Below are positions 1,002 to 54,727 of a stretch of 64,000 nt of DNA, piece by piece; the first letter of the stretch is position 1, and the number at the start of each line of letters is the position of its first letter. Location: the IMG/VR virus record IMGVR_UViG_3300029796_000300; one strand, 5' to 3'. Position numbers and translations under genes: made by a program. The DNA is from a virus. The notes under the pieces were generated by a model. The model had not been told where the DNA came from, ran no database searches, and was given only the letters and a program-made list of their open reading frames with translations.

Positions 1002-1034
1002 TTTTTAATTCTCCTTTTTTGAAATTTTTTTGAT

Positions 1035-1171
1035 ATATAAAAGCCAGCATCCGTATGGACGCTGACTGAATTTTCTTTGTGTTTGTGATACTTCTTTTGT
1101 ATGGTCTCAGCATACCGGCAGGCACGGAAAACTCCGCATTTTGCAAATTGGAACCTAAGAACCGAGGAACC
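1035..1171 (-). promoter_or_regulatory. conserved intergenic leader element (type B) copy 1: GAACC x3 at 8-bp period, conserved core, covarying hairpin + T-tract
   Basis: Shared sequence with 5 other copies (5037, 8218, 10258, 54764, 59167); hairpin GCCAGCATCC-GTAT-GGACGCTGAC. Confidence 0.6.
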
Positions 1172-4249: not shown

Positions 4250-4998
4250 TTATGAGATTTGAGAATCGGCGTTCTTCACATAGTCTTTCACTTTCTTCTG
4301 AAGCTGGTTGACCTTGCAAATCACGTTCTCCTCGTCGTCGATATCCTCGTAACTGCTGTCACAGCCGTCTACCACATTACCGTTTGCGGCAATGTAGAGC
4401 GTATCGAAGGCAATGCTGTTGTACTCTGTGGAGTAATCCGTTACCAGCTCGTCCATGTCGGTCCTGAGCACCTCCGGTGCTCTTACGCCGATGCCGTTCT
4501 TGTTGGCACGTCCGGTATTTAACAGCCAATTCAAATCGTCATCCTTGACCGAATGCTGTTTACCCTGGCCGAAGAAGGACAAGCCGCTCAGAATTTTCGC
4601 GTTGTCATTGTCGCGGAACGCCTCGTGGAACATATCCACAGAGACATCGACCTCGCACATATCCTGCTCTTCCATCTTAGCATACGATTCCAGCAGCGTC
4701 AGCGCGAGGTCGCGCATCTGCTCCTTCGACGTCGCTCCGTTGGTGGCGACATAGAAAGCAGCCGGCATCGTGTCATAACGCTCCGCAAGCTCAAAGTACC
4801 GCTTGATGGCCGGAACATTCAAAGACGGCTCGCCGCCCGTGAAAATGACGGAAGCAGGGTGGATATGCTTAGCGATGCCCGACAGAACTGCTGTTGAGAT
4901 GTCAAGATTTTGCGCATCTCCGCGCAGGCAGTGGTTGCATTTCATGTTGCAGCGACGAGTGACCTCAATGGCGAGGTAATTTACATAAATCTCCATTT
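4250..4998 (-). CDS. radical SAM domain protein (CNMKCNHC = CxxxCxxC; TGGEP motif), small single-cluster type
   Basis: Cys triad 13 aa from N-terminus; ATG at 4996-4998 downstream of leader copy 2 with AAAGGAGAAATG RBS. Confidence 0.8.
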
Positions 4999-5036
4999 TC
5001 ATTTCTCCTTTTTTGTGATGGTTATGTGATATATAA

Positions 5037-5176
5037 AAGCCAGCACCCACGCGGGCGCTGACTGAACTTTCTCTTTTGTTTGTGATACTTCTTTGGTATG
5101 GTCTCAGCATACCGGCGGAAGTGGAAATTGCCGCATTCACCTTCCAAGAACCTGAGAACTGGAGAACCGGAGAACT
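5037..5176 (-). promoter_or_regulatory. conserved leader element (type B) copy 2; hairpin GCCAGCACCC-ACGC-GGGCGCTGAC (compensatory changes); GAACC/GAACT x4 at 8-bp period
   Basis: Alignment with other copies. Confidence 0.6.
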
Positions 5177-7484: not shown

Positions 7485-8183
7485 TCAGTCACGCCAGTAT
7501 GCGCCGTCTTTCGCTTCGCCCTTCGGGAAAACGGTATACTCTGTTCCGTGCAGCACGATGTACTCATGGTTCAGAACATTGACAGAATCTCCAACGTCAA
7601 TGGTCTGAATGTTGAATACCTGCTTTGTGTCCAGACAGACGTCTGCCTTTGTCGCCGCAATGCAATTTCCGCCGTCCCAAACGGAGACATAAGGGATGTT
7701 GCGAACGATGGAAGGCTCTTCCTCAGTGCTCTGCTCAGCTTTCTCCAGAGCTGCCCGTACCTCGCCAATCTGCCAAGAAGGCATCAACGGGAATCCGGCT
7801 CTCGTATAGAGACCGCCGCCCGCCTCCGCCTTCTCCAAGGCGGCCTTTGCGGCGTCCTCGGATGCGAAGATGGTGTACTGGCTGACCTCGATACCGGGCA
7901 AGTAGGAAAACGTCTTCGTTTTACCATCAGAGCATTCGACTTCGGTCATTCCCGAATAGGCAACGCCCGTCCAGCCAAACCAACCGGGTTCCACAAATTC
8001 GGAGAAGGTCACAGTAGACACCGTTACTTTTACGACCGCCAACTCTCTCGTGGACGGACGATACAGCCGACCGTATTTGTTGACTTTCTGCTTAAAGGTG
8101 ATTGCGTACACCTCGGAGCCAATGCCGATGGGAACGCCGTCAGCAGTCTTGCACGCTGGTAAGAGATATGCCTTGTTCTTCAT
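7485..8183 (-). CDS. hypothetical protein
   Basis: 232-aa ORF, first gene after leader copy 3. Confidence 0.6.
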   Translation of the reverse strand: MKNKAYLLPACKTADGVPIGIGSEVYAITFKQKVNKYGRLYRPSTRELAVVKVTVSTVTFSEFVEPGWFGWTGVAYSGMTEVECSDGKTKTFSYLPGIEVSQYTIFASEDAAKAALEKAEAGGGLYTRAGFPLMPSWQIGEVRAALEKAEQSTEEEPSIVRNIPYVSVWDGGNCIAATKADVCLDTKQVFNIQTIDVGDSVNVLNHEYIVLHGTEYTVFPKGEAKDGAYWRD

Positions 8184-8217
8184 TTTTTTCGTTTCTCCTT
8201 TTTGTTTATGAAATTTT

Positions 8218-8359
8218 TATATATAAAAGCCAGCATCCGCAACGGACGCTGACTGAACTTTCTTTGTGTTTGAGATACTTCTTTTGTATGATTTCAGCAT
8301 ACCGGCAGAAGAGAAAAAATCACCTATTTCCTGATGGAGAACCTAAGAATATGAGAACT
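8218..8359 (-). promoter_or_regulatory. conserved leader element (type B) copy 3; hairpin GCCAGCATCC-GCAAC-GGACGCTGAC
   Basis: Alignment with other copies; GAACC/GAATA/GAACT at 8-bp period. Confidence 0.6.
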
Positions 8360-9861: not shown

Positions 9862-10227
9862 TCAAGCTGCCATCTGGTACAGCCATGCTTCAAAGTCTTC
9901 ATAGTCCATCAGCCGTCCATCCACCTCGACGAATCCAGGCTGCGTTGTGCCGCGAACAACGGAAAAGGAATCTCCGCCGCCACAGAAAACGCGAATGTTC
10001 GTTCTGGAGATGCTCTCGCAGCGCAAGAAATACGAGCCGAGGCGTTCCCAAATTCGGGACATCTCCTCGTCGGTCGCTTCCCAACTGCGGTTTTGGCTGG
10101 TACGGACCTTTGTTGCGGATACGGACAACTCAACCTGCTCCGTATCTTCCGGCAGCCCAAGCTCCGCGCAGACCTCTTTCCACTTTGTTTCGTCGCTGAA
10201 ATCCCACTTAAACAGCATTGCTTCCAT
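9862..10227 (-). CDS. hypothetical protein (MEAMLFKWDF...)
   Basis: Internal Met with AAAAAGGAGAAATAAAC RBS; first gene after leader copy 4. Confidence 0.55.
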   Translation of the reverse strand: MEAMLFKWDFSDETKWKEVCAELGLPEDTEQVELSVSATKVRTSQNRSWEATDEEMSRIWERLGSYFLRCESISRTNIRVFCGGGDSFSVVRGTTQPGFVEVDGRLMDYEDFEAWLYQMAA

Positions 10228-10257
10228 GTTTATTTCTCCTTTTTCGTGTTTTTTTGA

Positions 10258-10398
10258 TATATAAAAAGCCAGCGGCATGATAAAACCGCTGACTGAACTT
10301 TCTTTGTGTATGTGATACTTCCTTTGTATGCTCTGAGCATACCGGCAAATATGGAAACACGCCTATTTTAATGTTGGGAACCTGAGAACCGAAGAATA
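10258..10398 (-). promoter_or_regulatory. conserved leader element (type B) copy 4; hairpin stem CAGCGG / CCGCTG with 10-nt loop
   Basis: Alignment; GAACC GAACC GAATA at 8-bp period. Confidence 0.6.
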
Positions 10399-10500: not shown

Positions 10501-11622
10501 TCATTCAAGAAAGTCCTGAAGCATCTTCCCTGCCTTTCCGTTGCGTAGCTTATCGAGTGTTTTATCTGTAACCTGACGGACACGCTCTCGCGTTAAGTCC
10601 ATTTCGTCCCCGATTTCTTTGAGGGTATAAGCACAACCATCCTCCAATCCGAATCGTAAGCGAAGCACACAGGCGTCTCGTGCGGGCATATCGTGCAGGA
10701 TTTTGTCCATCGTTTCCCATAGTGCCTTCCCTGACGTTGAAATTTCCGGGTTATCCCACTCGTTATGGCTTGGGATGAATTCCGAAAGCGGTGTGTTGGA
10801 ATCGCTTGCGGCGTCCGAATTGACGGGCGCATCCAACGAGTCCGGCTTCCGGTACTGGAGCGAGTGTTGGATGATGCGCAGTTTTTTCTGCTGCTCCCTT
10901 TTTGAAAGGGAATCCCACGCATCCCCCTCCATGTATTTTGCGATTTCTAAAGGGTCATCACAAGGTAAGCCTTTTTGTTGCATTTGTTCTTTTGCATTAT
11001 TGACGCTCCGCCTGCCCTCCGCAACATAGATGGGCTTGCGAATGGCTGGGTCCGTCGTGGCAAGCGCTCTTGTGATGTTTTGCCTTATCCAGAAGGTTGC
11101 GTAGGTGGAAAACTTCACATTCCTCGAAATGTCAAAAGAGTCGATGGAACGCATGAGGCCAATGTTGCCCTCCTGAATGAGGTCCATGAACACCATAGAA
11201 TCGGCTGAGTTTATATATTTCTTTGCGATGGACACAACAAGCCGAAGATTGCCCTCAACAACCTTATCTTTCGCCCGTCTTCCTGCTTCTATGGCCTTCA
11301 TCAGGTCTTTCTTGATTTCGGGGTCAACTGCATTCCCGCTCTCCTCGGCAATTACCCGCAGCGTTTCGAGCTGTTCGGCAGCGGCATTCCCCTTCTGCAC
11401 TTTTTCAATGCAGCGATTCGCTTCCACCTGCGGCATAATGGGAATGCTGCCAATTTGGCTGAGATACATCGCCACATGGTCGCCGATATTTCCCGGCTGC
11501 TTCGCTTCGGTCTCCTGTTCATTCGAAGCTGTGATTTCTTCTGTTTCAGGCTGCCTTTCAATGGCTTCATAGGCAAGCGCACGGTCAGCGGCTAAATTAC
11601 TGGTATTCGTGATGTCAACCAC
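10501..11622 (-). CDS. RNA polymerase sigma-70 family sigma factor (regions 1.2-4; housekeeping-like paralog carried on element); start codon uncertain (GTG at 11622 or ATG at 11472)
   Basis: Region 2 motif LIQEGNIGLMRSIDSFD...FSTYATFWIRQ; region 4 HTH LKEIGDEMDLTRERVRQV. Confidence 0.8.
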   Translation of the reverse strand: MVDITNTSNLAADRALAYEAIERQPETEEITASNEQETEAKQPGNIGDHVAMYLSQIGSIPIMPQVEANRCIEKVQKGNAAAEQLETLRVIAEESGNAVDPEIKKDLMKAIEAGRRAKDKVVEGNLRLVVSIAKKYINSADSMVFMDLIQEGNIGLMRSIDSFDISRNVKFSTYATFWIRQNITRALATTDPAIRKPIYVAEGRRSVNNAKEQMQQKGLPCDDPLEIAKYMEGDAWDSLSKREQQKKLRIIQHSLQYRKPDSLDAPVNSDAASDSNTPLSEFIPSHNEWDNPEISTSGKALWETMDKILHDMPARDACVLRLRFGLEDGCAYTLKEIGDEMDLTRERVRQVTDKTLDKLRNGKAGKMLQDFLE

Positions 11623-11641: not shown

Positions 11642-11670
11642 CAATTATACCACACAATAGCTTACTTGTC
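11642..11670 (-). promoter_or_regulatory. consensus sigma-A type promoter TTGACA-N17-TATAAT with TGTGG extended -10 (type A family)
   Basis: rc reads TTGACAAGTAAGCTATTGTGTGGTATAAT. Confidence 0.6.
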
Positions 11671-11720
11671 AATCAAAAGGCCGCCAGCGATGTGCTGACA
11701 GCCTTCCAGGATGGGAGAGA

Positions 11721-12229: not shown

Positions 12230-12757
12230 TTACACCTCCGAAATTTCGATTCCGTACTTTTCCAACATGAGTTTGCGTTTCATAAGATACTTTTCGGTTC
12301 GTTTTCCCTTCGCGTCTTCCACGATGCGTTTACCGTTGCGAAGGTATACGAAATCTGCCTTATAGACCATTGGGCGAACCCGCTTGCCATTTGGCCGTGT
12401 ATAGCCCTCGACCAGCGTGAAGTCCTGCTGGAGCCGCAGGTCCTGGATTGCACCGCCCTTGTACTGCAAATACAGTTCATCGAAGCGCCGTGCCTCCCGC
12501 TTGCTGGGGAATTTCACGGTTTCTCCATCCACCACGCGAATGACCTTTACATTGCGATATTTGGATGGCTCAGCAGCGTCCGCTTCTTTCGGCTGTTTTT
12601 GCCTTTTCTGTGCTTCCGGCTGTTTTTTTGCTTGCTGCTGTTTCTGTTCGCGCTTCTGCTCGTCGAGCTTTGCACGCACCTGAATCTGTGCGGAAAGCGG
12701 CAGGCTATTGATGTCAATACCCACCTTCAGTTCCTCCGCCTGTTTGTGGCGCGGCAT
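12230..12757 (-). CDS. DUF1064-like phage protein (KYRNVKV...YKADFVY...IVEDAKG motifs), basic/Q-rich N-terminus
   Basis: Motif resemblance to DUF1064 family. Confidence 0.6.
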   Translation of the reverse strand: MPRHKQAEELKVGIDINSLPLSAQIQVRAKLDEQKREQKQQQAKKQPEAQKRQKQPKEADAAEPSKYRNVKVIRVVDGETVKFPSKREARRFDELYLQYKGGAIQDLRLQQDFTLVEGYTRPNGKRVRPMVYKADFVYLRNGKRIVEDAKGKRTEKYLMKRKLMLEKYGIEISEV

Positions 12758-13116
12758 TTTGGCTGCTTCCTTCTCGCAGCAGAATCAAATTCATGACCTT
12801 CCATACCGTCCAGATACACAGATGGCGAACTATGCTTCTGCTGGTGCCGTGCAGGTCGGCGATTTGCGAAAACGTCATTCTGTCACGAAAATACTTTTGG
12901 ACGATATCGCGGTTTCGCTCAGGAAGTGTGTCCAGCGCTTCATCGAACATCTCGTTAAAGCCCGGTGTAAATGAAATTTGATTCTTACCCCAGGCTGAAA
13001 TTTGATTCTTACACCAGGCAAAGGATGTATCGTACATAATGGCCGCCTTCCGCCACTCCTCCGGGGCAAACTCAGGCTGGTTAATCTTGTCTGTCGTTTG
13101 TTTCTTTGTCATTTTT
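12714..13116 (-). CDS. small sigma region-4-like HTH DNA-binding protein; contains in-frame tandem repeat (AWCKNQIS AWGKNQIS)
   Basis: RNRDIVQKYFRDRMTFSQIADLHGTSRSIV resembles sigma-70 region 4. Confidence 0.5.
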
Positions 13117-13357: not shown

Positions 13358-14614
13358 TCAACCAGATTCATGGTCAGCACCTCCGTCCATCTTGGCCCCG
13401 CAATCCTCGCAGTATTTTTTGGTAGGCTTGTCCCAACTGCCCTCAGTGGTAATGACAAAGCCGCACGCAGGGCAACACCACTCGTCCCCGCCAAGATGCG
13501 CCCAGCTGGTGTGCATTACCGGGGCCACGTCAGTGGTGAGAAAATCTCTTCGTGAGCTGCGCCACAGCATGAGCAGCATCTCGCTGACCGGTCTGGTTCG
13601 GTCCTTCCTCACGGCTTTCCTCACGCATCGCAGATGCCCGCCGTCCGGGCAAAGCACACCGACGCCGTATGGCACAGTATCCTTCACCGCTTCGAAGACG
13701 TCTGCGGGCATAACGTAGTAGTTGTAGTCCGCGATGAAGTTGTGCCCGTTAGGAGATTTGAAATCCTCCACAGAGGACTTGACCTCGTAGGCGTAGAAGT
13801 CCCCCTTCTCAATGCCGGAGGTCGAATTGTTGAGCGGCTGAAAGCGCATATAGTCCACGCGGATTTTGTGGTTCGTAGAGTAGTCGAATGTGACCTCTCT
13901 CGCCCAGTAGATGCGTGGGTCGTTGCGCGGGTCGATGTATCGCTCCAGCATGGCAGAGAGCTGGCGAGTGTGTTCCTTCCGGGTGAAGGCATCACTCGTT
14001 TCCGGACAGAATTGAGCTGGCTTTCCAAGGATGAAATGGAACGGCAGAGCCTTTTCCAGTACGTCGATAATATTCTGAAGGGTCCCCTGCCCGCATTGGC
14101 GCAGATTCTTCAGTTTGCCGCTCTCTATCAGTCGAACAACATCGCCGATACTTTGGGCACCACTGAACATAAGGCAGTTCTTGGTGCGAGTCGAGAAATT
14201 GAGGCACTGAAACGGAACAGAATCGCACAACTCCTCGATTTTTTTCCAGTTGCCATTCTCAATGGCCTCCTTCAAAGTAGAGGCGAGAGGGCTGCCTGCA
14301 AACCGGCGCATTTCTTTCAGGATACCCCCCGCATATTTGGGGTGACGCAGCCTCCTTATGGCGAGGTCGAAGCAAGAGTAGAACTTGCCGATGTCAATTT
14401 CCAGTGCGTTTGCGCATTGTGTTGGTGTAAGACCGTCGCGGTAGCGTTTTAAGATAGCTTCCCGCTCCAACTCAGGGAATGTGGCGATGGCAGCGTCTAC
14501 AGCTGCGTCGAAAGAGTCAGAGAACTCAGCACACGGCATACACAAGCAATCCTGCATCAAATTCTTTCGCCATTCTACTGACGAGCGAAGCAGGAAACGC
14601 TCCTCAGTGTTCAT
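13358..14614 (-). CDS. multidomain protein: N-terminal sigma region-4-like HTH, RpoA alpha-CTD-like HhH segment, C-terminal PD-(D/E)xK-like nuclease motif, C-terminal Cys4 ribbon
   Basis: EREAILKRYRDGLTPTQCANALEI; LNFSTRTKNCLMFSGAQSIGDVVRL; GDFYAYEVKSS; CPACG...CEDCG. Confidence 0.6.
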   Translation of the reverse strand: MNTEERFLLRSSVEWRKNLMQDCLCMPCAEFSDSFDAAVDAAIATFPELEREAILKRYRDGLTPTQCANALEIDIGKFYSCFDLAIRRLRHPKYAGGILKEMRRFAGSPLASTLKEAIENGNWKKIEELCDSVPFQCLNFSTRTKNCLMFSGAQSIGDVVRLIESGKLKNLRQCGQGTLQNIIDVLEKALPFHFILGKPAQFCPETSDAFTRKEHTRQLSAMLERYIDPRNDPRIYWAREVTFDYSTNHKIRVDYMRFQPLNNSTSGIEKGDFYAYEVKSSVEDFKSPNGHNFIADYNYYVMPADVFEAVKDTVPYGVGVLCPDGGHLRCVRKAVRKDRTRPVSEMLLMLWRSSRRDFLTTDVAPVMHTSWAHLGGDEWCCPACGFVITTEGSWDKPTKKYCEDCGAKMDGGADHESG

Positions 14615-15722: not shown

Positions 15723-17117
15723 TTATTTTTTTGCCTCGGCTGCTGCATGGGGAAGCCGCACCCAGCCGCCCTTATGACGAACAAGCTGGATTTTCTTCAT
15801 GCTGACCATAAGCGGCTTTCCATCCGTGAGTAGGCTTAATGCCCTGCCATAGCTGGAGCAGCCCTTGGAAACGTATTTGCGATTGCCGTAGACCACGATA
15901 TCTCCCGGCTGCATGGCATATCTCTGCTTTCTGGTCGAGGTTCGGCCCTTTGACTTCTTACAGCCACGGAACCGGCGCAGATTTTCGCCGTCAAGGTTAT
16001 GATTGCGGTTCGTCCTGCCGGAGGACAGCTCGTTGCCAGAACGGATAACTCCCTTTTCCCGTGTGTCGTAATATTTGGCGTCATAGAATTTGGATAGGAC
16101 TCTGTTGTTTCGCCTGTATTTCTGGAAGACCTCTGTTTCGCATCTGGCTTCCGGACGCAGCTCGCCCATGCAGTAGGCATCCGTAGCGCAGGAATACGGG
16201 AGGCCGAGGTTGGTGCGGACGCGCTTGGAGATGACGCCATAGGTCATGTGTACTTCCGCAACACCCTGGAAGCGAGCCATCGCACGCTGATAGAGAATCC
16301 AGCGCACGCTATTCATAAACGCTTCGCCGGTATATTTCCGCAGAGGCTTATCGAAGCCCCACAGCTTCCCGCCCTCCTTGTGATTGGCAGGTGTGTTGCA
16401 CTTCTCGCAGCAGGTCGCAAGCTCCCTCATGCTGTTCCCATGCAGACCTTTCCAGTAGTAGGCGTGATGGACATGAAGGATAGCGCCGTCTTTCAGGCCT
16501 CTCTTGCAATACACACAGGTATAGTGGTCCCGTTCAAAGACCGCTTCCCGCAGCGTATCGTAGCCGTACTGCGGTCCATGCTGATAGTCCTTGCCCTGCG
16601 GGACAGGTTCCCCTGCCTCCAGCGCCGCAAGGAGCTGTGTATCGTATGTCGCGGCCTTGATAAAGACATCCGTGACAGGCATGACAGACAGATAACGGGA
16701 GATAATATCCAGGTGCCGCTCCACCTTGTTGTCCAGAGACGGAGCAATCCAACCGGGCTTTTTGCCTGATACACGGTTATTGAACCGTGCAGCCCGATAC
16801 CGCAGGCGGTTTCTGCGCGTCCGGCGGTACGCTCGGCAGTCGTCATGGCGAGAGCGCTCGTTCGTGAGCATATCATATTGCTGCGATACGACCTCTTTTG
16901 CCTTTGTCTTAATGCTGACGCCGATATGCTCATATCCGGTGCCGACGCACATTTCGATGGGCTGGGTATAGGTACTGGTATCGTAGGTCAGCTGGATGGT
17001 GAACGGGTTCCGCTTCGCAATCACAGCGCGGCCATCCTTCAACAGATGGCGCACTTTGCCGTAATTTTCGGTCGGCATCAGCCGTTCACCGTTTGCACTT
17101 AAAACACATACTGGCAT
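15723..17117 (-). CDS. IscB-family protein (PLMP, bridge helix, HNH zinc finger present) with RuvC catalytic residues substituted (RuvC-I D->T, RuvC-II E->K, RuvC-III H->C) relative to the canonical copy at 29896..31188
   Basis: Pairwise alignment by eye: ILGVDAGSKTIG vs EMCVGTGYEHIG; VVVETAEFD vs VFIKAATYD; HTNDALAIA vs SCATDAYCM; HNH HVHH kept, N->E. Confidence 0.8.
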   Translation of the reverse strand: MPVCVLSANGERLMPTENYGKVRHLLKDGRAVIAKRNPFTIQLTYDTSTYTQPIEMCVGTGYEHIGVSIKTKAKEVVSQQYDMLTNERSRHDDCRAYRRTRRNRLRYRAARFNNRVSGKKPGWIAPSLDNKVERHLDIISRYLSVMPVTDVFIKAATYDTQLLAALEAGEPVPQGKDYQHGPQYGYDTLREAVFERDHYTCVYCKRGLKDGAILHVHHAYYWKGLHGNSMRELATCCEKCNTPANHKEGGKLWGFDKPLRKYTGEAFMNSVRWILYQRAMARFQGVAEVHMTYGVISKRVRTNLGLPYSCATDAYCMGELRPEARCETEVFQKYRRNNRVLSKFYDAKYYDTREKGVIRSGNELSSGRTNRNHNLDGENLRRFRGCKKSKGRTSTRKQRYAMQPGDIVVYGNRKYVSKGCSSYGRALSLLTDGKPLMVSMKKIQLVRHKGGWVRLPHAAAEAKK

Positions 17118-17640
17118 CTTATTTTTTCCTTTCACGCTGCGGGTGCAGTTTCCTGTCATTCGATGGGGGACGTCAACTGCGTGATGCTCCGTTTGCGGGG
17201 GGCTGCGGTATAGCTACCTGTCATTTGGTGGGGGACGTCAACCTGTCAATCCGGATTGCAATTTAATCGTACGGTATAGCTCCCTGTCATTTGGTGGGGG
17301 ACGTCAACTGAAGTTGAGTTTGCCGAGTATATTCCAAACGACAAACCAAAAAGGTAAATCAGCACTTACCGCTCACGCGGCGTTACTGTGGTCCACATCG
17401 CCAAGGATATACCGGGTTTGATGGTACGCACACTTCTCCTTCCCCTCAGAGATGTTTAATACGCACCCGCAGAGCGGCGGACTTGTGGAGTATCCGCCGG
17501 TGCCTATGTATTCCGGCATATCGTAGTCTTGCGGCTGAGGCTTATTGACGAGGCTTACTCTCCTTGCGGGTCATAAGCCACACCAAATGACAGGAGGCTG
17601 AGCCGGAGTTTCCGGCGCACCCGCCCGCCATTCGGCGGGG
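17118..17640 (-). ncRNA. putative IscB omega-RNA region upstream of iscB-like gene (shares conserved core with region 31189-31470)
   Basis: Structured, non-coding, homologous motif ...ctcagag.tgtttaa...ccgcagag...ccgccggtgcctat... shared with second IscB locus. Confidence 0.45.
17139..17313. repeat. three direct copies of 26-bp unit CCTGTCATTTGGTGGGGGACGTCAAC at ~70-bp period; unit is complementary to CACCAAATGACAGG at 17586-17599
   Basis: Direct reading of sequence. Confidence 0.75.
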
Positions 17641-18699: not shown

Positions 18700-19010
18700 A
18701 GAAAACCAAAGATTTGGTAAATCAGCACTTACCGCTCACGCGGCGTTACTGTGGTCCACATCGCCAAGGATATACCGGGTTTGATGGTACGCACACTTCT
18801 CCTTCCCCTCAGAGATGTTTAATACGCACCCGCAGAGCAGCGGACTTGTGGAGCATCCACCGGTGCCTATGGATTCCGGCATATCGTAGCCTTGCGGCTG
18901 AGGCTTATTGACGAGGCTTACTCCCCTTGCGGGTCATAAGCCACACCAAATGACAGGAGGCTGGGTCGGAGTTTCCGGCGCACCCGCCCGCCATTCGGCG
19001 GGAGTGCAGA
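18700..19010 (-). ncRNA. orphan near-identical duplicate (~300 bp, a few SNPs) of the omega-RNA-like segment 17341-17640, not adjacent to any iscB
   Basis: Near-identity over ~300 bp incl. CACCAAATGACAGGAGGCTG at 18946. Confidence 0.45.
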
Positions 19011-24599: not shown

Positions 24600-24795
24600 T
24601 ATGATGATTTCTCCGTCTGAGCACTCAATGACGGAATAGGCTCCCTCACTCGAAATATTGACACTCCCCACGGCTAAAGCCGGGGGATTCCTGGTTCAAC
24701 GACCGCAGCCTGCACGAGCGAGGTCTTACATGGTCTCCCCAGGCGTATCGGTTCGGGCGTGTCCCGCCCTACCATGAGCAAAAAGTCTATCAGGC
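24600..24795 (-). ncRNA. putative TnpB omega-RNA (reRNA) at 3' end of tnpB / right end of IS
   Basis: Structured GC-rich hairpins immediately 3' of tnpB (CCCACGGCTAAAGCCGGGGG etc.). Confidence 0.4.
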
Positions 24796-25911
24796 TGCGG
24801 ACGACCGCTTGCGAAGCCCCTCTTCCAGGATGTTCTGCGCCGCGTTGATGTCGCGGTCATGGAACGCGCCGCACTGCGGACAGGTCCAAAACCGGATACC
24901 GAGGTCTTTGACCTCTTTGTTTTGATATCCGCAACAGCCGCAAGTCTGGCTGGATGGGAAGAACCTGCCGATGATGACGAGTTCCTTGCCATACCAGTCA
25001 GCCTTGTAGGCAAGCTGCCTGCGGATTTCGCCCCATGCGGCGTCCGCAACATGGAGCGCGAGCTTGTGGTTCTTCATCATGTTTTTGGAGGACAAGTCCT
25101 CTATGCAGATGATGTCATTGCTCCGCACAAGCTGCGTCGTCATCTTATGGATGGCGTCATTCCGTTGGTTAGCAATATGCTCATGTAACCGCGCAATTTT
25201 AACGCGAGCTTTCTCACGGTTGCAGCTCCCCTTTGATTTTCGGGAGAGCTGCCGTTGGAGGCGGGCCAGCTTCTTGAGATTGCGGCGGTAGCTATGGAGG
25301 TTGTCGTACTTCACGCCATCCGATGTGATAGCCAAGTCCTTGATGCCGAGGTCTATGCCGACAGCGGCTCCGGTCTTTGGCAGCGACTTGATGTCCACGT
25401 CGGTACAGCAAAGGGAAACATAGTATTTGCCGCTGGCTTCCTGTGACACAGTAGCAGAGAGCACTCGGCCCTCCACCTTGCGGCTGACGCGGCACTTGAC
25501 ATTGCCGAGCTTCGGGAGCTGCATCGCACCGTCCAGCACCTTGATATTGGTGCCGACGCATTTGCTTTTATAGCTGCGGCGGTGCTGGCGCTTGCTCTTG
25601 AAGCATGGAAATCCCGGCTTCTCACCGTGCTTCACACGGCGGAAGAAGTTCTGGTAGGCGGTATCCAAGTCACGCAGGGACGATTGCAGCGCAGTAGAAT
25701 CCACCTCGCCGAGCCACGGACGTTGTTTCTTCAAGGCGGTCATATCGGCGGAGCAGGCCTTATAGCCAAGTGTCGTCTTGTCTGTCTTGTAAGCGTCAAT
25801 ACGCTTGGCGAGATAGTAGTTATAGACGAAGCGGCAGCATCCAAAGGTTCGTTGTATCTGAATCGTTTGCTCTTTCGTAGGGTAGATACGAAATCTGTAA
25901 CTATGCTCCAT
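24790..25911 (-). CDS. tnpB: TnpB (IS200/IS605 family OrfB; RuvC-like nuclease, intact catalytic motifs)
   Basis: [10 protein letters not shown]; [10 protein letters not shown] (D); ICIEDL (E); CGCCG...[18 protein letters not shown]. Confidence 0.85.
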
Positions 25912-25957
25912 GAAATCACCGCCTTTCATACTTGATTATACCATATTTTCGTGGTTT

Positions 25958-26286: not shown

Positions 26287-26967
26287 CTATGGAAGCTCCC
26301 AGTGAATTGGTGTGCTTCCCATCTGTTCCAACAATCTGTTAGTTTGAGAAAAAGGTCTGCTGCCGATGAATGCTTTTACTACATCGTTTCCTTTTCGTGC
26401 TCCAAGGGGGCTTGGATGACTTGAAAATACCACACCCTTATTAGGCAGTTGTGAAATTGGAATTCCGGCAAGAAAAGCTCTCGCCTGTCCGCCCCATGTG
26501 ATGAACACAATCGGCTGCGGCAGCTTCGCACACGCCGCGAATACCGCCTGCGTGAAGTTCTGCCACCCCCAGTTTTTATGGCTGTTTGCGGTCCCATCCT
26601 GTACTGTAAGTACGGTATTGAGCATGAGCACGCCTTGTTCCGCCCAGTGAGTCAGGTCTCCACTTTTCGGATACGGACAACCAATGTCACTGACCAGTTC
26701 CTTGAAGACGTTTTTGAGCGACGGTGGAAAAAGCACACCACGGTTTACTGAAAAGCACAGCCCGTTCGCCTGCCCCGCCTCGTGATATGGGTCTTGCCCG
26801 ACAAGGCATACCTTCACCTTCTCCGGCGTGGTAAGCTCCAACGCACGGAATATCTGCTCCTGCGGCGGGTATATTGTGCGACCCGCTTCGCGCTCACAGG
26901 CAGCCCGCTTGGCAAGCTCAGCTCCAAGCGCCTGTACATCCTGTGGGATTACATCGCTCCACATCAC
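26287..26967 (-). CDS. ung: uracil-DNA glycosylase (family 1 UNG)
   Basis: GQDPYHEAGQANGLCFSV and HPSPLGARKG motifs. Confidence 0.85.
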   Translation of the reverse strand: MMWSDVIPQDVQALGAELAKRAACEREAGRTIYPPQEQIFRALELTTPEKVKVCLVGQDPYHEAGQANGLCFSVNRGVLFPPSLKNVFKELVSDIGCPYPKSGDLTHWAEQGVLMLNTVLTVQDGTANSHKNWGWQNFTQAVFAACAKLPQPIVFITWGGQARAFLAGIPISQLPNKGVVFSSHPSPLGARKGNDVVKAFIGSRPFSQTNRLLEQMGSTPIHWELP

Positions 26968-27777: not shown

Positions 27778-29271
27778 TTATTCAGCCTTGCCGTCCGCGT
27801 CATTCTTGGCAGGCGGTTCCTGCGGCTGTGTGGGAGCTGCCGTATTGTCCGGCTTGTCCATGACGATGACAGGAGAGGTCTGCTGGGCCGTGAGCTTGCC
27901 GCCGATGGCTCCGGCAATAAGAGACTTAATATCCAACCCCATTCCGGAAGAAAGGCCCTCTGTGACCTGTGTGGTGCCGTTGATGATGTCACCCAGCAGC
28001 TTCGCGCTGTTGCCTTCGCCGTACATCGTGATTTTATCCACCTTGCTGAGAGGTTCAGCGACATTCTTGGCGATTTCCGGCAAAGCGTTCATAATCATCT
28101 CAACGATGGCCGCGTCGCCGTATTTCTTCATAGCTTCTGCCTTCTTGTCGATACCTTCTGCTTCAGCAACGGCCTTGGCACGAATGACATTGGCTTCCGC
28201 CTCACCGACGGCAGCAATACCAGCAGCTTCCTGCTCGCGGGCGTACTTTACGGCGTCGGCTTCCGCTCTCTTTGCATCCGCCTCACGTTGGCGCTCGAAA
28301 AGCTGCGCCTCCGCGTCCTTCTGACGTCGGTAGAGGTCGGCATCCGCCTGTGCGCGGACCTCCGCATCCAGAGACTGCTTCTTAACTTCGACCTCTTTGT
28401 TTTTCAGCTCCGCTTCGCGTTCCGCCTTGGCGATTTGCGCATTGACGGTAGCCGTCTCAATGGAGCGCTGCTGTTCCTGCTGCTGGATGGTATACGCGGC
28501 ATCGGCCTCGGCCTTCTTCGTATCCTCCTGAACCTTGAGTTCAGCTTTGCGGATGGAGAGGTCATTCAGCTTCTGAGCGATTTGCATTTCGGACTCGACT
28601 TTGGCATCGTTAGACGCCTTGGCCGCCTGCGCCTGAGCGATAGCCACGTCACGCTCCGCCTCAGCTTTGGCGATGGCAGCATCCTTCTGGATTTTGCTCA
28701 TATTGTCCTGACCGAGGGAGTTGATTAAGCTGTTTTCGTCCGTGACACGCTGGATATTGCAGGAGATGATTTCGATACCGAGCGCACTCATATCTGTCTG
28801 TGCTTTTGACTGTACCTCGTCACCGAATTTCTTTCGGTCATTGCAGATTTCCTTGAGAGAGATGGTGCCGATGATTTCGCGCATATTGCCCTGGAGAGAA
28901 TCCGCGATGGCGCAGCTGAAATCCGCTTCTCGCATATTCAGAAAGTTCTTCATGGCGAGCTGGATGCCTTCCGGGTCCGTCTTGACTCTGACCTTGGCAA
29001 CCGCGTCCACATCGACGCCGATGAAGTCGTTGGTCGGGATATAGCCTTCCGACTTGATGTCGATGGAGATTTGCCGGACAATGAGCTTATCTACACGCTC
29101 CAGAAACGGAATTCGGATACCCGCTCGCCCAATCAGAACGCGGGGCCTTTTTCGTATACCGGAAATGATGTAGGCCACATCGGGCGGAGCCTTTACATAG
29201 CCAAGAAGAAAGATAATCACCACAAGGGCCACTACTGCAATTACAGGCAGCAGCTTCACGAGATTTTCCAT
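27778..29271 (-). CDS. flotillin / SPFH (band 7) family membrane protein (FloT/YqiK-like) with Ala/Glu/Lys-rich coiled region
   Basis: N-terminal TM, SPFH core, long AEAERDVAIAQAQA... repeats. Confidence 0.8.
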   Translation of the reverse strand: MENLVKLLPVIAVVALVVIIFLLGYVKAPPDVAYIISGIRKRPRVLIGRAGIRIPFLERVDKLIVRQISIDIKSEGYIPTNDFIGVDVDAVAKVRVKTDPEGIQLAMKNFLNMREADFSCAIADSLQGNMREIIGTISLKEICNDRKKFGDEVQSKAQTDMSALGIEIISCNIQRVTDENSLINSLGQDNMSKIQKDAAIAKAEAERDVAIAQAQAAKASNDAKVESEMQIAQKLNDLSIRKAELKVQEDTKKAEADAAYTIQQQEQQRSIETATVNAQIAKAEREAELKNKEVEVKKQSLDAEVRAQADADLYRRQKDAEAQLFERQREADAKRAEADAVKYAREQEAAGIAAVGEAEANVIRAKAVAEAEGIDKKAEAMKKYGDAAIVEMIMNALPEIAKNVAEPLSKVDKITMYGEGNSAKLLGDIINGTTQVTEGLSSGMGLDIKSLIAGAIGGKLTAQQTSPVIVMDKPDNTAAPTQPQEPPAKNDADGKAE

Positions 29272-29895: not shown

Positions 29896-31188
29896 CTATG
29901 CAACCAAATAACTTTGGCTGCGTTCCAATAGTTTTAAGTGTTTGTAGCTCACGCCGTCTTTGACCTTTTCTCCGTTGAGCTGCCGCAGCAGGAAGGAGCC
30001 GCTGGTGCGTCTCCCCCAGACAAAGCACTCGATACCGTTGTAGAGCACCTTGTCGTAGAGGCGGAAGCCGCAGATGTACTTCTCTGCCTGATTGGCCTTC
30101 CGCACACCGCCCTTCAGGATGGTCGCCTTGTGCAGCTGACGGTTGTGATGTCTCACAGGGCAGATGGTGTAAAGTTGGTCCGCCTGACGGATATTTGGCA
30201 GGTATTCTGCGCGAAAGCCCTGCGGGCCGTGCGCGATTGCCAGCGCGTCGTTGGTATGGCTCTTCGGCAGCACCAGCAGATTCTCCCGCGTAGCCTTGGT
30301 GATGTAGCCCCTGGTCTCCACAACGGGGACAGGAAGCTGCTCCCGCAGCCTCCGCAGCAGCGTCATGCGCATGATGCCCATGAAGGTTGCGTCGCGGGTG
30401 GAGCGGCGCTTGCGCTTCTTGATGTCCGCTGCCATGATAATGCCCTTGTGGAGCTTATCGTGACAGGCGGTACAGAGCGTTACCAGATTGTCCGGAGCGT
30501 CACCGCCTACCCTGCGGCTCTCAAGATGATGCACATGGAGCGGGACGCCCTTCCTGACGGAGCCATGCACCCCGCAGATGCGGCAGGTATAGCTGTCGCG
30601 CCACAGGACGTACTGGCGCACGTTGTAGTGGCCGTACATCTCGCCCTTCTGGTAGTCCTCGCCCTGCGGAACAGGCTTCCCTTCCGCAACGGCCTTGAGG
30701 AGCTGCAAGTCGAACTCGGCGGTCTCTACAACCACCTTGCTGACAGGCAGGATGGCGCAGGCACGCCGGATGGCGGTCATGTGCTCCTGAATCTTGACCT
30801 CCACGGAGGGCGCAAGCCAGCCTTTGTGCTTGCTCCGCACGCGATTGTCGAAGCGTGGCTTGCGATACCGGGTGGTACGATTGCGCCGCGCACGGCGGAA
30901 TTGCCTGCGTGCGGACATCAGCTCGACTACATCGTTGCGCGGCTTGACCTCTGCGGAGAACAGTTCCTCCGTTTCGGTGGCAGCTGAAAGACCAATGGTT
31001 TTGCTGCCGGCGTCCACACCGAGGATGACCTCCTGCGTATAGCCGGTACTGCCGTAGAGCAGCTGAATGGTAAATGGTGTTCTGTGTCTCACTTTTGCCT
31101 TGCCCGCATCCAGAAGATGACGGGCCTTCGCCGGTGTGCAGGGCATCAGCGGACGCCCGTGCCGATTGAGAACATAGACCTTTGGCAT
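29896..31188 (-). CDS. iscB: IscB (OMEGA RNA-guided nuclease; PLMP, RuvC-I/II/III, bridge helix, HNH all intact)
   Basis: RPLMPCTP; ILGVDAGSKTIG; RRARRNRTTRYRKPRFDNR; VVVETAEFD; CRICG...HVHH...DNLVTLCTACHDKLH; HTNDALAIA. Confidence 0.85.
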   Translation of the reverse strand: MPKVYVLNRHGRPLMPCTPAKARHLLDAGKAKVRHRTPFTIQLLYGSTGYTQEVILGVDAGSKTIGLSAATETEELFSAEVKPRNDVVELMSARRQFRRARRNRTTRYRKPRFDNRVRSKHKGWLAPSVEVKIQEHMTAIRRACAILPVSKVVVETAEFDLQLLKAVAEGKPVPQGEDYQKGEMYGHYNVRQYVLWRDSYTCRICGVHGSVRKGVPLHVHHLESRRVGGDAPDNLVTLCTACHDKLHKGIIMAADIKKRKRRSTRDATFMGIMRMTLLRRLREQLPVPVVETRGYITKATRENLLVLPKSHTNDALAIAHGPQGFRAEYLPNIRQADQLYTICPVRHHNRQLHKATILKGGVRKANQAEKYICGFRLYDKVLYNGIECFVWGRRTSGSFLLRQLNGEKVKDGVSYKHLKLLERSQSYLVA

Positions 31189-31470
31189 ACGTTGATGCCT
31201 CCTTTCTTTGGGTGCGGCTAAAAATTAAGCCGCTCAGCCTTTCGGCTGTCAGGTATCCGTACCCAATGTTATCCCAGGGTTTTGTGTATGCAGCACTGCT
31301 CCTTACCCTCAGAGCTGTTTAACCACACACCGCAGAGTGGCAGATTCGGATTCACGTCCGCCGGTGCCTATCTATTCCTGGGTAACGTAGTGTTCGAAAC
31401 ACTTAGGGTAGTCAATCAGGCTCGTGGTTCGCACCACAAGCCCCCGGCTTTAGCCGTGGGGTTACATTGA
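31189..31470 (-). ncRNA. putative IscB omega-RNA immediately upstream of iscB
   Basis: Non-coding structured region homologous to 17400-17560 core; terminal hairpin CCCCCGGCTTTAGCCGTGGGG. Confidence 0.5.
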
Positions 31471-33200
31471 CTTTGAGGGACCCCTCTCACTTTGGCCTTT
31501 TCGATTTTTCCAATCACTTCTGTTACCTTCTGTGCAGTCAGAGGGCTGGCGGTGGATTTATCCAGTGCGTCCAGCAGTTCCGGCAGCTCGCCGAGTTTTA
31601 CGACCGGGATTTCGCTGTTGTCCGCATCCTGCAATTTTACATTTGGGTTGGCAAGGCAGATGATGCCGCATACCGGAACATCCTCACCAACGATTTTCGA
31701 CAGTAAGGCAGCGTGACGCTTAACTTGGAAAGCTGGGCTTTCCGTTGTGGTGAAATGCCCTGCATTTCGCATATCCCGGTCCCAATAGTTCGTGTCATCG
31801 ACGCGGATGGTTCCAACGTAGTTTTTTGTCTCAATATGAATGACGCCGGCAGGTCCTACGAGGAGGTGGTCGATTTCCTGTGGCTCTTTCATATAGTCCC
31901 ACGCGGCGATACGGATACATCCTCCGCTGTACTTGCTCACGCAGTCTGCCGCGATGCTGCGGTATGCGCTGTGCTCTGCAAGCCACCACTTGAGTTTGTA
32001 ATTCACTTCCCTCTCACCGGCTTCGCCCAGTTCTCGTGCTTTGCGCTCCCGCTCCTCCTGCTCTTGCTCCACACGAGCGGCTTCCGCCGCCGCGCTGGCG
32101 ATTTGATTGCGGTAGTTCGAGCACACGCTTTCCGCGAGACCAGTCACGCCTTCCAGTATCAGATTAAGCTGACTATTGAGTTGAAAATGTTTGGCCGCTA
32201 TTTCGCTGCGCAAGTGCAAGATGTTTTTCGATTTTTCGAGAAGCACACACTCACCGAGCGTAAGGTCGGAGTAAGCGTCGCAGAAGGCATCTGGGATATT
32301 GAGCCTGCACTTCTCCATTATCCAGCTTTTTACTTCCGCTCTCTTCTGTGCTCTGACACAGCAATACTCCGGATGCGTCCGCTCCAACGTGTCGATGTAC
32401 TGTCGCGCATGGGCGATGATGCCGCTTCGCTCCGCAGCAATCGCTGCTTCCTCGGCCTGCTTCGCCTCCGCTTCCCGGCATCTGGCCTCTTCCTGCCTGC
32501 GTTGCCGCTCCTCACGGATATGCTGCGCGGTCTTCCCGCTTACGCCAGGTTTGAACTCGTACATCTTTCCGGTCGCAAACAGGGCTTTCAGCAGGACGGA
32601 GACATAATAGGCGCTGTACGGAATCAGCAGGACAATGCCAAGGTAGCAGAACACATAGGATACGACGCCGAGAGCCTTCCACAACGAGACGACCAGGACG
32701 AAGGCCGCAACGTAGGCGGCCAGATAGATAAGGCATTTTGTCCTCTGATTTTTGTCGCGAGTCATGGTCAAGAATTTGCTCTGCTCCACATAATCCGCAT
32801 ACTGTTCATCCGATACGACTTTCTGCCACTCGTCCGCCATGCTGCGGTTTGCAAAGAAGAAGGTTCGGAGCATTAACAACAAACCGATAACCGCCAGCAA
32901 AATGAAGGCCACAATGCAGACACAAAGGAGTGCGAGCACAGCGCTAATCACCTTGAGGATACCGTGACCGAGCAGTTCGGCGAGCCATCCGCACAGCTGG
33001 GTCGCCAGAATTCCGCCCATGCCGATGCAGAAGGTCTTAGTGAGCAGTGCAGCTTCCTTTTTCAGTGTTGCCTTGACTGTACTGTAGTATGTTTCCGCAG
33101 ACCTTATCCCCTCGTTGTTCTCCACAATTTCCCGTGCGGCATCCATGTACTTATGAAGCCGGTCAACAAACCAATCTTTGATGGAATCCAACATAAGCAA
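31416..33200 (-). CDS. membrane-anchored NERD (nuclease-related) domain protein
   Basis: N-terminal TM helices; C-terminal ...NYKLKWWL...DHLLVGPAGVIHIETKNYVG NERD pattern; 3' end overlaps omega-RNA region. Confidence 0.65.
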   Translation of the reverse strand: MLMLDSIKDWFVDRLHKYMDAAREIVENNEGIRSAETYYSTVKATLKKEAALLTKTFCIGMGGILATQLCGWLAELLGHGILKVISAVLALLCVCIVAFILLAVIGLLLMLRTFFFANRSMADEWQKVVSDEQYADYVEQSKFLTMTRDKNQRTKCLIYLAAYVAAFVLVVSLWKALGVVSYVFCYLGIVLLIPYSAYYVSVLLKALFATGKMYEFKPGVSGKTAQHIREERQRRQEEARCREAEAKQAEEAAIAAERSGIIAHARQYIDTLERTHPEYCCVRAQKRAEVKSWIMEKCRLNIPDAFCDAYSDLTLGECVLLEKSKNILHLRSEIAAKHFQLNSQLNLILEGVTGLAESVCSNYRNQIASAAAEAARVEQEQEERERKARELGEAGEREVNYKLKWWLAEHSAYRSIAADCVSKYSGGCIRIAAWDYMKEPQEIDHLLVGPAGVIHIETKNYVGTIRVDDTNYWDRDMRNAGHFTTTESPAFQVKRHAALLSKIVGEDVPVCGIICLANPNVKLQDADNSEIPVVKLGELPELLDALDKSTASPLTAQKVTEVIGKIEKAKVRGVPQSQCNPTAKAGGLWCEPRA

Positions 33201-53779: not shown

Positions 53780-54727
53780 TTAAACTCCTTCCTTCTGCCG
53801 TGCCAGATACTCCTGACGTTCGGCCTCCTTTTTGTTCTCTCCTTCGATGATGACGGGGATGCACATGGCATTCTCCCACGTTTCGATGAAGCGTGTTACG
53901 CGATACATCATGCGGTACATATCGCGGTCAGAAACCTGGATAAATACCTCCACCTTGTTTCGCATGGATTTTCCGTCGAATGTCGTGGCCCCGGTCGCCT
54001 GCTCAATCACCTTGGCATCGCCGTTGGTGATTTTCAGGACCCAAGGATACATTGCAAGGTCTCCGTCCTGACGAACGCTGTCATGCGTGACTGTCAGCAT
54101 AGACACCGGCGCAAATCCGTCCGTGCCTTTCTTGTAGGTATTGACCTTGGACATGGCATACTGGTAGTCCATTCGGTGCGGAAATTTGAGCGCAGTCCCA
54201 ATGTCCGCATCCGCGATAGCAGTGCGGGCTTCTTTCAGAACTGTGCCGGCTGCCATGAGGATATCCTTCTTTTCTGCTCCCTTAACGGCCTTGGCCACAA
54301 TGCTTACGCTCTTGCTCAGAAGACTGCCATAAGCCTTCGCAACGCTGGCAGTGCGATGAATCGACTTCATCAGACCATTGACAGCATTGGGGGCCAAAAC
54401 AGTCTCCCATGGCTTCTGCGCATCCTTCGCGACACGTCCAATCAGCGGAACAGCCATCGTACCGACATTGCAGCGGCAAACGGTGAGCCATTCGTCGAAC
54501 ATGGTCGGGTCAATATTCACGGAACAGGTGACACTTTTATCGCCCGTTCCCTTCGTGAAATCACAGATGACCATTTCGATGACAGAGGGAAAGGTCTTTC
54601 CTCCATTTTTCTTGCCGCCAGACTGGTGCATCATCGCATACTCGTCAGGCAGCGACCGGCTCAGCTTGTCGCGAAAGTCAACGACTTTATCCTTGCCGTT
54701 ACACTTGGTAATCACATTTGTTACCAT
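53780..54727 (-). CDS. hypothetical protein cotranscribed with ERF
   Basis: 315-aa ORF after leader copy 5. Confidence 0.6.
   Translation of the reverse strand: MVTNVITKCNGKDKVVDFRDKLSRSLPDEYAMMHQSGGKKNGGKTFPSVIEMVICDFTKGTGDKSVTCSVNIDPTMFDEWLTVCRCNVGTMAVPLIGRVAKDAQKPWETVLAPNAVNGLMKSIHRTASVAKAYGSLLSKSVSIVAKAVKGAEKKDILMAAGTVLKEARTAIADADIGTALKFPHRMDYQYAMSKVNTYKKGTDGFAPVSMLTVTHDSVRQDGDLAMYPWVLKITNGDAKVIEQATGATTFDGKSMRNKVEVFIQVSDRDMYRMMYRVTRFIETWENAMCIPVIIEGENKKEAERQEYLARQKEGV

Follow-up and report, generated by a model that had tools for sequence, protein, structure and literature searches.

The published sequences that appear most comparable to the element described here are the EGeRS (establishment gene regulatory sequences), the "establishment regulon" sequences of the pLS20-family conjugative plasmids of Bacillus, which are conserved regions repeated before several operons of variable and mostly uncharacterized genes (Val-Calvo et al. 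2021, PMC8708921). EGeRS2 of the Bacillus plasmid p576 is present in four copies and combines a strong sigma-A promoter with direct-repeat operators for a ribbon-helix-helix (RHH) repressor; the operators are paired heptamers (PMC8708921). EGeRS1 of pLS20 consists of long structured regions (420-750 bp, GC-rich, with many inverted repeats) that block read-through in an orientation-dependent manner (PMC8708921). In this report, we describe a conserved leader module of about 190 nt (the length is taken from an alignment of the copies) that occurs six times in a 64,000-nucleotide stretch of DNA, the IMG/VR virus record IMGVR_UViG_3300029796_000300, here called the window. We consider the chances to be about even that each copy heads an independent transcription unit and that the copies jointly define one regulon, whose leader carries a factor-dependent attenuator. 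The module would then be a leader that carries an intrinsic attenuator and is repeated through the regulon of a conjugative element, sharing the logic of the EGeRS but neither their anatomy nor their sequence.

Like EGeRS2, the module is a conserved sequence located before several operons of a Gram-positive conjugative plasmid, where it would define a regulon of variable genes, mostly of unknown function. Both have short direct repeats by the promoter, and in p576 these repeats (TTATCCCnnTTATCCC) are operators for one plasmid repressor. Unlike EGeRS2, the module has no detectable sigma-A promoter, and it contains a core of about 51 nt and a covarying, terminator-like hairpin in the leader, whereas EGeRS2 is without a leader hairpin. 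The two share no sequence similarity, and there are about 17 copies here compared with four in p576. The likeness to EGeRS1 lies in the multicopy leaders that stand directly upstream of the ribosome sites of operons, without a constitutive sigma-A promoter. The module is, however, only about 190 bp long; it has a single covarying hairpin, and its A-rich core is unstructured.

Termination or antitermination in the leaders of Gram-positive conjugative elements has been described for conAn of pLS20, canT of Tn916, and a zipper-type attenuator (PMC8191782, PMC11658703, PMC13401043). In contrast to the module, these are single-copy, long RNA elements that head one long conjugation operon. The zipper type has a cis antiterminator helix, and none was found in the module by the swap test presented below.

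All six copies are on the minus strand of the window, at positions 1035-1171, 5037-5176, 8218-8359, 10258-10398, 54764-54917, and 59167-59310. These positions and the common orientation were given in a first-pass annotation of the DNA and are confirmed by a pattern search and by a covariance model; the bounds run from the outermost repeat to the end of the U-tract. A 39-nt core pattern gave five matches at ≤3 mismatches and a degenerate 30-mer recovered all six copies, with no match in dinucleotide shuffles. The covariance model, which was built from related copies and run over the window with the filters off, returned exactly six matches of 97-112 bits, and the next best match scored 14.9 bits. 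The same module was found on a 570-kb contig of Oscillospiraceae bacterium CM18GR_63 that is about 99% identical to the window (the reference contig), where there are 17 copies on one strand, and on IMG/VR contigs of up to 136 kb, which hold at least 15. A contig scan gave at least 120 loci in metagenome contigs. Among the matches listed from IMG/VR and gut metagenomes, 289 module instances have full flanks, and these represent 99 distinct sequences of the core plus the hairpin, P2.

In the sense of the gene, the module usually starts behind the terminator of the preceding unit with three to five contiguous 8-nt units (RGTTCYNN), which are followed by nine variable bases and a near-invariant AAT. 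From there to the core runs a spacer whose length is constant at 19-20 nt and whose sequence varies but includes a conserved T-run; the core itself reads CCGGTATGCT-N5-CATAC-N4-GAAGTATC-NCA...TTCAG. The core is followed by P2, which has a conserved lower stem and a variable upper stem and loop, and by CTTTTATATA, about 20 A-rich bases, a conserved ribosome-binding site (AAAGGAGAA), and the start codon. The core had been called invariant in the first-pass annotation; it is strongly conserved but near-invariant only, and the 8-nt repeats and the conserved ribosome-binding region had been described only in part. The statement that each copy lies directly after the previous terminator holds for most copies, and these terminators are strong, but it does not hold for module 4 (10258-10398), which has no upstream terminator and is directly preceded by the gene for a sigma factor. 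The parts of the six modules are listed below, with the positions of the AAT, the Shine-Dalgarno (SD) sequence, and the start codon.

1150-1171, minus strand: module 1 repeats, three contiguous 8-nt RGTTCY units, putative operator
1068-1118, minus strand: module 1 core, CCGGTATGCT-N5-CATAC-N4-GAAGTATC...TTCAG; AAT at 1138-1140
1033-1067, minus strand: module 1 P2 (1042-1067, -17.6 kcal/mol) and TTTATATAT tail; SD at 1010-1015, ATG at 999-1001
5147-5176, minus strand: module 2 repeats, four RGTTCY units
5064-5115, minus strand: module 2 core; AAT at 5135-5137
5029-5063, minus strand: module 2 P2 (5038-5063, -19.6 kcal/mol) and U-tract tail; SD at 5004-5009, ATG at 4994-4996 (radical SAM gene)
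8338-8359, minus strand: module 3 RGTTCY repeats, with a degenerate middle unit (TATTCT)
8255-8305, minus strand: module 3 core; AAT at 8326-8328
8219-8254, minus strand: module 3 P2 (8228-8254, -18.7 kcal/mol) and tail; SD at 8194-8199, ATG at 8181-8183
10377-10398, minus strand: module 4 RGTTCY repeats
10295-10345, minus strand: module 4 core, in which P1 is a full 7-bp palindrome (GTATGCT-CAG-AGCATAC); AAT at 10365-10367
10258-10294, minus strand: module 4 P2 (10267-10294, 8-nt loop, -16.8 kcal/mol) and tail; SD at 10235-10240, ATG at 10225-10227
54880-54917, minus strand: module 5 repeats, five units, one of them inverted (AGAACC)
54797-54847, minus strand: module 5 core; AAT at 54867-54869
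54763-54796, minus strand: module 5 P2 (54772-54796, -13.4 kcal/mol) and tail; SD at 54738-54743, ATG at 54725-54727; heads the ERF-containing operon
59286-59307, minus strand: module 6 repeats, two inverted units (GGAAC) and then one direct, degenerate unit (TATTCC)
59203-59253, minus strand: module 6 core; AAT at 59273-59275
59167-59202, minus strand: module 6 P2 (59176-59202, one C-A mismatch, -11.1 kcal/mol) and tail; SD at 59139-59144, ATG at 59127-59129; heads the operon for the vWA protein

Natural variants of the module were found in related sequences. One is a hybrid (L014, 2875-2967) in which the 5' half corresponds to module 4, with the loop CTCAGAG, whereas module 3 is matched by the rest, namely the 3' half together with the hairpin and the region of the ribosome site (compare positions 10256-10350 and 8218-8310 of the window). 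Such hybrids indicate homologous exchange inside the core, which would shuffle cargo units between promoters. Another is a module class in the reference genome (L008, 4531-4601) in which the repeats and the AAT are retained along with the part of the core that ends at GAAGTATCAC (up to GAAGTATCACAAACAC), but which has no TTCAG, P2, or U-tract. The open reading frame (ORF) downstream of this variant looks frameshifted in the reference genome.

RNAalifold predicted two helices in the module, P1 (GGUAUG/CAUAC) and P2. For P2, 98% of the cells in an alignment of 31 distinct copies are able to pair, and double changes are found in 6 of the 11 base pairs. None of 500 column shuffles of this alignment reached any of five measures, and shifting the 3' partner by 1-3 columns left only 27-40% pairing. 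A model-fitted alignment of 50 distinct sequences gave 97% paired cells and double changes in 7 of the 11 pairs. Over all of these analyses, neither the paired fraction nor the covariation score was matched by any shuffle, and the slid controls paired in 25-40% of the cells. In all of the data together there are 41 distinct P2 hairpins, with stems such as CAGCGUCC/GGAUGCUG, CAGUAUCC/GGAUACUG, CUGCACCC/GGGCGCAG, CCGACGGUU/AACCGUUGG, and CCGGUGCCCCC/GGGAGCGCUGG. The compensatory stem changes that were reported in the first-pass annotation are therefore genuine. About 15% of the P2 cells hold G-U pairs, and the mean folding energy was determined to be -17.0 kcal/mol for the gene-sense strand versus -12.5 kcal/mol for its complement, with the sense strand being the more stable in 84 of 96 cases. 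The covariation, the G-U pairs, and the greater stability of the sense strand together indicate that P2 is a selected sense-strand structure, most simply an RNA.

The P2 tail is near-invariant and reads TTT(T)ATATA in nearly all copies. Judged by its sequence, P2 with this U-rich tail fits the formal description of an intrinsic terminator, and transcription would be expected to end there. A terminator consensus scan flagged four of the six P2 copies in the window; the other two have one internal mismatch each. The hairpin and U-tract lie between the possible promoter and the ribosome site, and the attenuator-like layout that had been proposed is upheld. A consensus scan found no sigma-A-type promoter between P2 and the ATG.

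An antiterminator helix that covaries with P2 was sought in a swap test, in which the upstream leader was matched with the P2 arms of its own module and of other modules. The native combinations gave -7.87 kcal/mol and the permuted combinations -7.85 ± 0.20 kcal/mol, and the module thus has no riboswitch-like, T-box-like, or zipper-type alternative helix. With no antiterminator helix in cis, read-through would need a factor acting in trans. The minimum-energy folds often pair the pyrimidine-rich 5' part of the leader with the SD sequence, and the mean duplex energy is -5.2 kcal/mol versus -2.3 kcal/mol for random 15-mers. Compared with composition-preserving shuffles, however, the pairing of the leader 5' end with the SD sequence (z = -0.24) or with GGAAG of the core (z = +0.32) was found to be an effect of composition. 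A hairpin, P0, formed by the purine and pyrimidine runs of the variable spacer was likewise rejected, with a mean z of +0.14 against dinucleotide shuffles for 24 folded representatives. No core 11-mer occurs elsewhere on either strand of the window, which argues against a separately encoded antisense RNA acting in trans. Searches of Rfam gave no match to the module at the gathering thresholds, and when E values of up to 10 were allowed, nothing was matched apart from the upstream terminator and noise. The literature that was searched did not contain the core sequence. On inspection of the sequences, a leader peptide starting at the ATG of GGTATG was dismissed, since there is no SD sequence, the conservation is not codon-like, and the frame is shifted by loop indels. 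There is also no R'/R'' core-site pattern of the kind required by an attC-like or other recombination-site reading, and homologous exchange within the core explains the hybrids.

The RGTTCY units of the window are found at the six modules only, where they are contiguous and have a period of 8 nt. Some of the units in modules 5 and 6 are inverted (GGAACC), and a tolerance of orientation is expected of protein-binding sites rather than of a -35 element or an RNA motif. The tight periodicity, the restriction to the modules, and the changing orientation all suggest that the repeats behave like DNA operator sites. Contiguous units of 7-8 bp in either orientation are typical of RHH repressors such as omega and MetJ. 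The operators of omega (inc18 plasmids) and the 8-bp metboxes of MetJ consist of two to five tandem units without spacers, direct or inverted, upstream of promoters. The contiguous 8-nt units of the module, which occur in either orientation, are similar, and they are putative operators for which no RHH protein was recognized here. The search for an RHH or other regulator among the first genes of the modules and the small ORFs was negative.

No sigma-A-type promoter (TTGACA/TATAAT-like) was found in any module by a consensus scan, and two canonical promoters were found elsewhere in the window, TTGACA-17-TATAAT at 11644-11672 and TTGACT-17-TATAAT at 62444-62416, both on the minus strand. With a terminator upstream and no sigma-A promoter, the module must carry a non-canonical promoter of its own. 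In 42 non-redundant modules, AA is present at -24/-23 in 98% and T at -22 in 88%; position -16 is a purine in 74%, and position -13 is T in 95%. Judged by this conservation, the hexamer that ends in the conserved AAT is the best candidate for a putative -10-like promoter element. Sporulation-sigma, sigma-54, extended -10, and T4-late-like promoters were considered for the core or the TATATA tail by manual inspection of the alignment, and none fits across the copies.

These results suggest the following mechanism. The three to five contiguous RGTTCY repeats would be DNA operators for a regulator encoded by the element, and the promoter would be non-canonical and would depend on a factor, with transcription probably starting at a purine that precedes the T-run and lies about 6-7 nt downstream of the AAT. 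The core of about 51 nt, which includes the quasi-palindrome GGTATGCT-N3-ANCATAC, would be a sequence-specific site for one trans-acting factor, either as leader RNA or as DNA. P2 plus CUUUUAUAUA, in the shape of a terminator hairpin in the RNA, would stop the majority of transcripts upstream of the ribosome site. For the polymerase to read through into the cargo, a trans factor would have to act on RNA polymerase or on the leader, and the expression of at least 17 operons would be coordinated and conditional. Those transcripts that pass P2 would be translated from the strongly conserved AAAGGAGAA region. The first-pass annotation listed a regulon leader specific to the element among its possibilities, and this fits best: there are 17 co-oriented copies per element, and most of them lie behind a terminator.

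Several observations weigh against this mechanism. No trans factor for the modules was recognized in domain scans of the element proteins. The complete sigma factor of the element keeps the residues that contact the -10 and -35 elements (FSTYATFWIRQNITRA and TRERVRQ), and thus it does not by itself explain a non-canonical promoter. The promoter assignment depends on a -10-like hexamer that is degenerate, with A at the second position in only 57% of the modules, and AAT is replaced by AAC in one module class. The variant class without P2 keeps the core, which points to a function of the core that is independent of P2, as a promoter would have. P1 is almost invariant, and in 50 distinct sequences it shows one-sided changes only, with 8 wobble cells and 5 broken cells. 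Finally, all of the copies come from a single family of closely related elements with a small phylogenetic depth. No compensatory change in P1 was found in either the 50 or the 99 distinct sequences. Its near-invariance says nothing for or against RNA pairing, and P1 could equally well be a 17-bp quasi-palindrome on DNA. The argument of the first-pass annotation that the covariation favors a selected structure rather than a protein-binding sequence consequently applies to P2 but not to the core and P1, which do not covary, or to the repeats, which are operator-like.

Processive antitermination is compatible with the data. The processive antitermination RNAs conAn2, canT, and put differ from the module in architecture: each is a single structured RNA at the start of an operon and protects the polymerase from terminators further downstream, whereas the module is short and multicopy and has one covarying hairpin. 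In the nut/N and qut/Q systems of phage lambda, a promoter is followed by a recognition site (a small hairpin with a linear box, or a DNA site with a -10-like pause element), an intrinsic terminator, and the genes. The module has the same order of parts as lambda nut/tR1 and qut/tR', and the resemblance is architectural only. Unlike lambda, there are 17 sites rather than one or two, and no N-, Q-, or NusG-like protein was found; Pfam and NCBIfam scans also showed no ConAn1- or NusG-like protein. We would put forward only tentatively, as a rather unlikely special case, a multi-operon antitermination regulon in which about 17 operons are each closed by P2 and are opened together by one element factor that is loaded on the polymerase at the core. 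The core could then be a nut-like RNA site, made of P1 and an A-rich box, or a qut-like DNA site. In the qut-like variant, GGTATGCT could be a sigma-dependent pause element and the RGTTCY repeats could be the docking site of the factor. As a lead only, GGTATGCT resembles TGGTATAAT, the extended -10 of the canonical promoters of the element itself. If such a regulon exists, a conjugative plasmid of gut Clostridia would carry an N/Q-type switch in many copies, which could give transient expression of establishment or anti-defense genes after transfer, and the N/Q-type logic known from individual operons of phages would then also apply to the entire regulon of a plasmid.

A serious, though rather unlikely, alternative is that the core itself is the promoter for an element-specific form of RNA polymerase, with the repeats as far-upstream activator sites and with P2, at about +15 to +45, attenuating transcription or stabilizing the mRNA. 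The modules must hold a promoter and none of the sigma-A type is seen, and GGTATGCT and GAAGTATC are 22 nt apart from start to start, compared with 23 nt in the -35/-10 geometry. However, the "spacer" between them, including CATAC, is as conserved as both blocks, which is unusual for a promoter, and the blocks are unlike TTGACA and TATAAT, although the recognition residues are canonical in the one complete sigma factor that was found. Conservation falls right after GAAGTATCAC, where the start site would be, and the natural variant without P2 keeps exactly the part up to GAAGTATCAC; this assignment would nevertheless leave the conserved AAT and T-run upstream unexplained. The element does encode additional proteins with sigma-region-4 and alpha-CTD-like domains, but the ORF of 215 aa that was taken to be ECF-like corresponds to a helix-turn-helix (HTH) protein of about 131 aa and not to a sigma factor, and no alternative RNA polymerase was found in the window.

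We regard it as improbable that P2 is a fixed, unregulated hairpin, acting as an insulator or dampener or in RNA processing and stability, and that the core has been kept only by recent duplication and gene conversion. The recombination inside the core of the hybrid modules is in keeping with this proposal, as are the single young element family that supplies all of the data and the lack of an antiterminator. The flanks, loops, and upper stems have, however, diverged freely, while the core and the CTTTTATATA tail are fixed over 99 distinct sequences, which argues for selection rather than homogenization. A constitutive terminator before 17 operons would also be a costly way to lower expression.

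There is similarly little to recommend the proposal that the module is mainly a gene for a small RNA (sRNA), in which 17 loci would each make an RNA of about 100-110 nt with an identical "seed" core and an end at P2, acting in trans on targets of the host or the element, and the cargo would be expressed only by leak-through. Multicopy sRNA families exist, and the module is laid out as sRNA genes normally are, with a conserved body, then a covarying terminator hairpin, and then a U-tract. Every copy is, however, followed at a fixed distance by a conserved ribosome site and an ORF, and no promoter separates them from it, and therefore expression of the cargo requires read-through. In addition, the 11-mers of the core are nowhere else in the window in either orientation, there is no Rfam match, and a GGA-like motif is not conserved, the position being G or A.

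The least probable proposal is that the module acts as single-stranded DNA (ssDNA) during conjugative entry, either as an Frpo-like single-strand promoter (the first-pass annotation had raised a single-strand promoter-like element) or as an ssi/sso-like priming signal, recognized by host RNA polymerase or the element primase: the element is conjugative (VirD4-like, VirB4-like, TrbC-like, and primase-like proteins), the copies are all co-oriented, and hairpins with conserved flanks are typical of ssi signals, but whole modules fold no better than shuffles on either strand (z from +0.05 to -1.73, with short P1 and P2 stems only), and the -35/-10 boxes are in no stem. P2 relies in part on G-U (G-T) pairing and has a less stable fold on the template strand, so that a transferred template strand would form it poorly, and gene expression on double-stranded DNA is suggested by the strict placement of the module, with a terminator before it and a ribosome site after it. 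Frpo of the F-like plasmids is a long ssDNA hairpin that rebuilds the -35 and -10 boxes on the template strand (PMC11541004). The module is similar to Frpo and ssi in that repeated elements lie upstream of, and are co-oriented with, genes (leading-region or anti-defense genes in the F-like plasmids). Unlike Frpo, it has no such fold, and P2 favors the sense strand.

The first genes behind the modules of the window encode an acidic protein of 181 aa (module 1), a radical-SAM protein (module 2), a protein of 232 aa that is followed by a Cys-rich protein (module 3), a protein of 121 aa (module 4), a protein of 315 aa that is followed by ERF (module 5), and a protein of 61 aa that is followed by a protein of 583 aa and a vWA protein (module 6). 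Ten further first genes behind other modules gave no Pfam match. The type IV secretion system (T4SS) block and the regulatory genes have no module. The module marks a regulon of at least 17 operons by sequence alone, and almost all of these encode proteins without a family assignment. Such a cargo profile is what might be expected of establishment or anti-defense genes, and on that expectation the module would be a practical handle for finding them. It is also a compact, testable case in Clostridia of coordinated control by a conserved leader with a built-in terminator, and it supplies a ready-made covariance model for a family, of RNA or of cis-regulatory elements, that Rfam does not contain.

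The module is carried by a large, conjugative, Rep_3-carrying, plasmid-like element of gut Oscillospiraceae that is very common in the human gut. Its conjugation genes include those for a VirD4-type coupling protein, a VirB4-like ATPase, a TrbC-like pilin, a PrgI-like protein, and a primase-like protein. The flank upstream of the window end contains a Rep_3 replication initiator and a type IA topoisomerase (L197, 1-1077 and 2228-4771), and the flank downstream of the window start contains a YqaJ-type exonuclease and a RecD2-like helicase (L071, 18299-20546). With the ERF of the window added, the flank genes give this plasmid-like conjugative element a set of recombination functions like that of a phage. 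An identical copy of the protein encoded downstream of module 1 was found in 6,656 blocks of the assembly collection, and few mobile elements are as widespread in public gut assemblies as this one. No relatives of the element were found in the PLSDB plasmid records or the GenBank/INPHARED phage records. Distant relatives that would give deeper covariation were also sought; protein searches and look-ups gave the same family only, and a genome scan gave a single species.

Three genes near module 4 encode proteins with sigma-factor domains.

10501-11622, minus strand: RpoD/SigA-like sigma factor, its gene preceded by a perfect TTGACA-17-TATAAT promoter (11644-11672); listed as genomic context only
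12714-13109, minus strand: protein of 131 aa, essentially a sigma-70 region-4 HTH
13358-14614, minus strand: protein of 418 aa, with a region-4-like HTH and an alpha-CTD-like domain

A full RpoD/SigA-like sigma factor is an unusual cargo for a conjugative element, and this one is 99% identical in hundreds of public contigs. The 131-aa and 418-aa proteins are candidates for the trans factor, and nothing more. The C-terminal part of the 418-aa protein resembles a gene product to which a plasmid record gives the name MmcB family DNA repair protein. A second, ECF-like sigma factor was rejected because the ORF of 215 aa is over-extended; the gene callers give about 132 aa, and the product is a region-4 HTH protein only. 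A ProQ-like RNA binder was suggested by a weak precomputed match in a related locus, and the match was not reproduced on the ortholog in the window. Just upstream of the promoter of the sigma gene, at 11673-11700 on the minus strand, there is a short hairpin (GTCAGC-ACATC-GCTGGC plus TTTT) that shares its base sequence with P2 and may be the remnant of a module or a relative of P2.

The second canonical promoter of the window, TTGACT-17-TATAAT (62416-62444, minus strand), precedes a gene for a protein of 462 aa and faces a divergent promoter on the plus strand (62526-62555). The only plus-strand genes are one at 62564-63457 and an HTH-containing ORF, which begins at about 63.47 kb and is cut off by the end of the window. 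The area of these divergent promoters looks like the master regulatory region.

Three matches to HEARO (the IscB omega-RNA) were found above the Rfam gathering score on the minus strand, at 31248-31471, 18749-18968, and 17386-17549. Two of the three lie directly upstream of ORFs for IscB-like proteins, and an ORF for a TnpB-like protein is also present in this part of the window (the ORFs are 29896-31188, 15723-17159, and 24790-25929). On the basis of these similarities, several OMEGA-type insertions appear to be present inside the conjugative element. An S1 RNA-binding (OB-fold) domain was identified in a protein of 417 aa encoded at 40390-41643, within the T4SS gene block, and this protein may be a component that binds RNA or ssDNA. 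A protein of the uracil-DNA glycosylase family and a flotillin/SPFH protein (26287-26967 and 27778-29271) are encoded in the cargo that separates the T4SS block from the sigma cluster.

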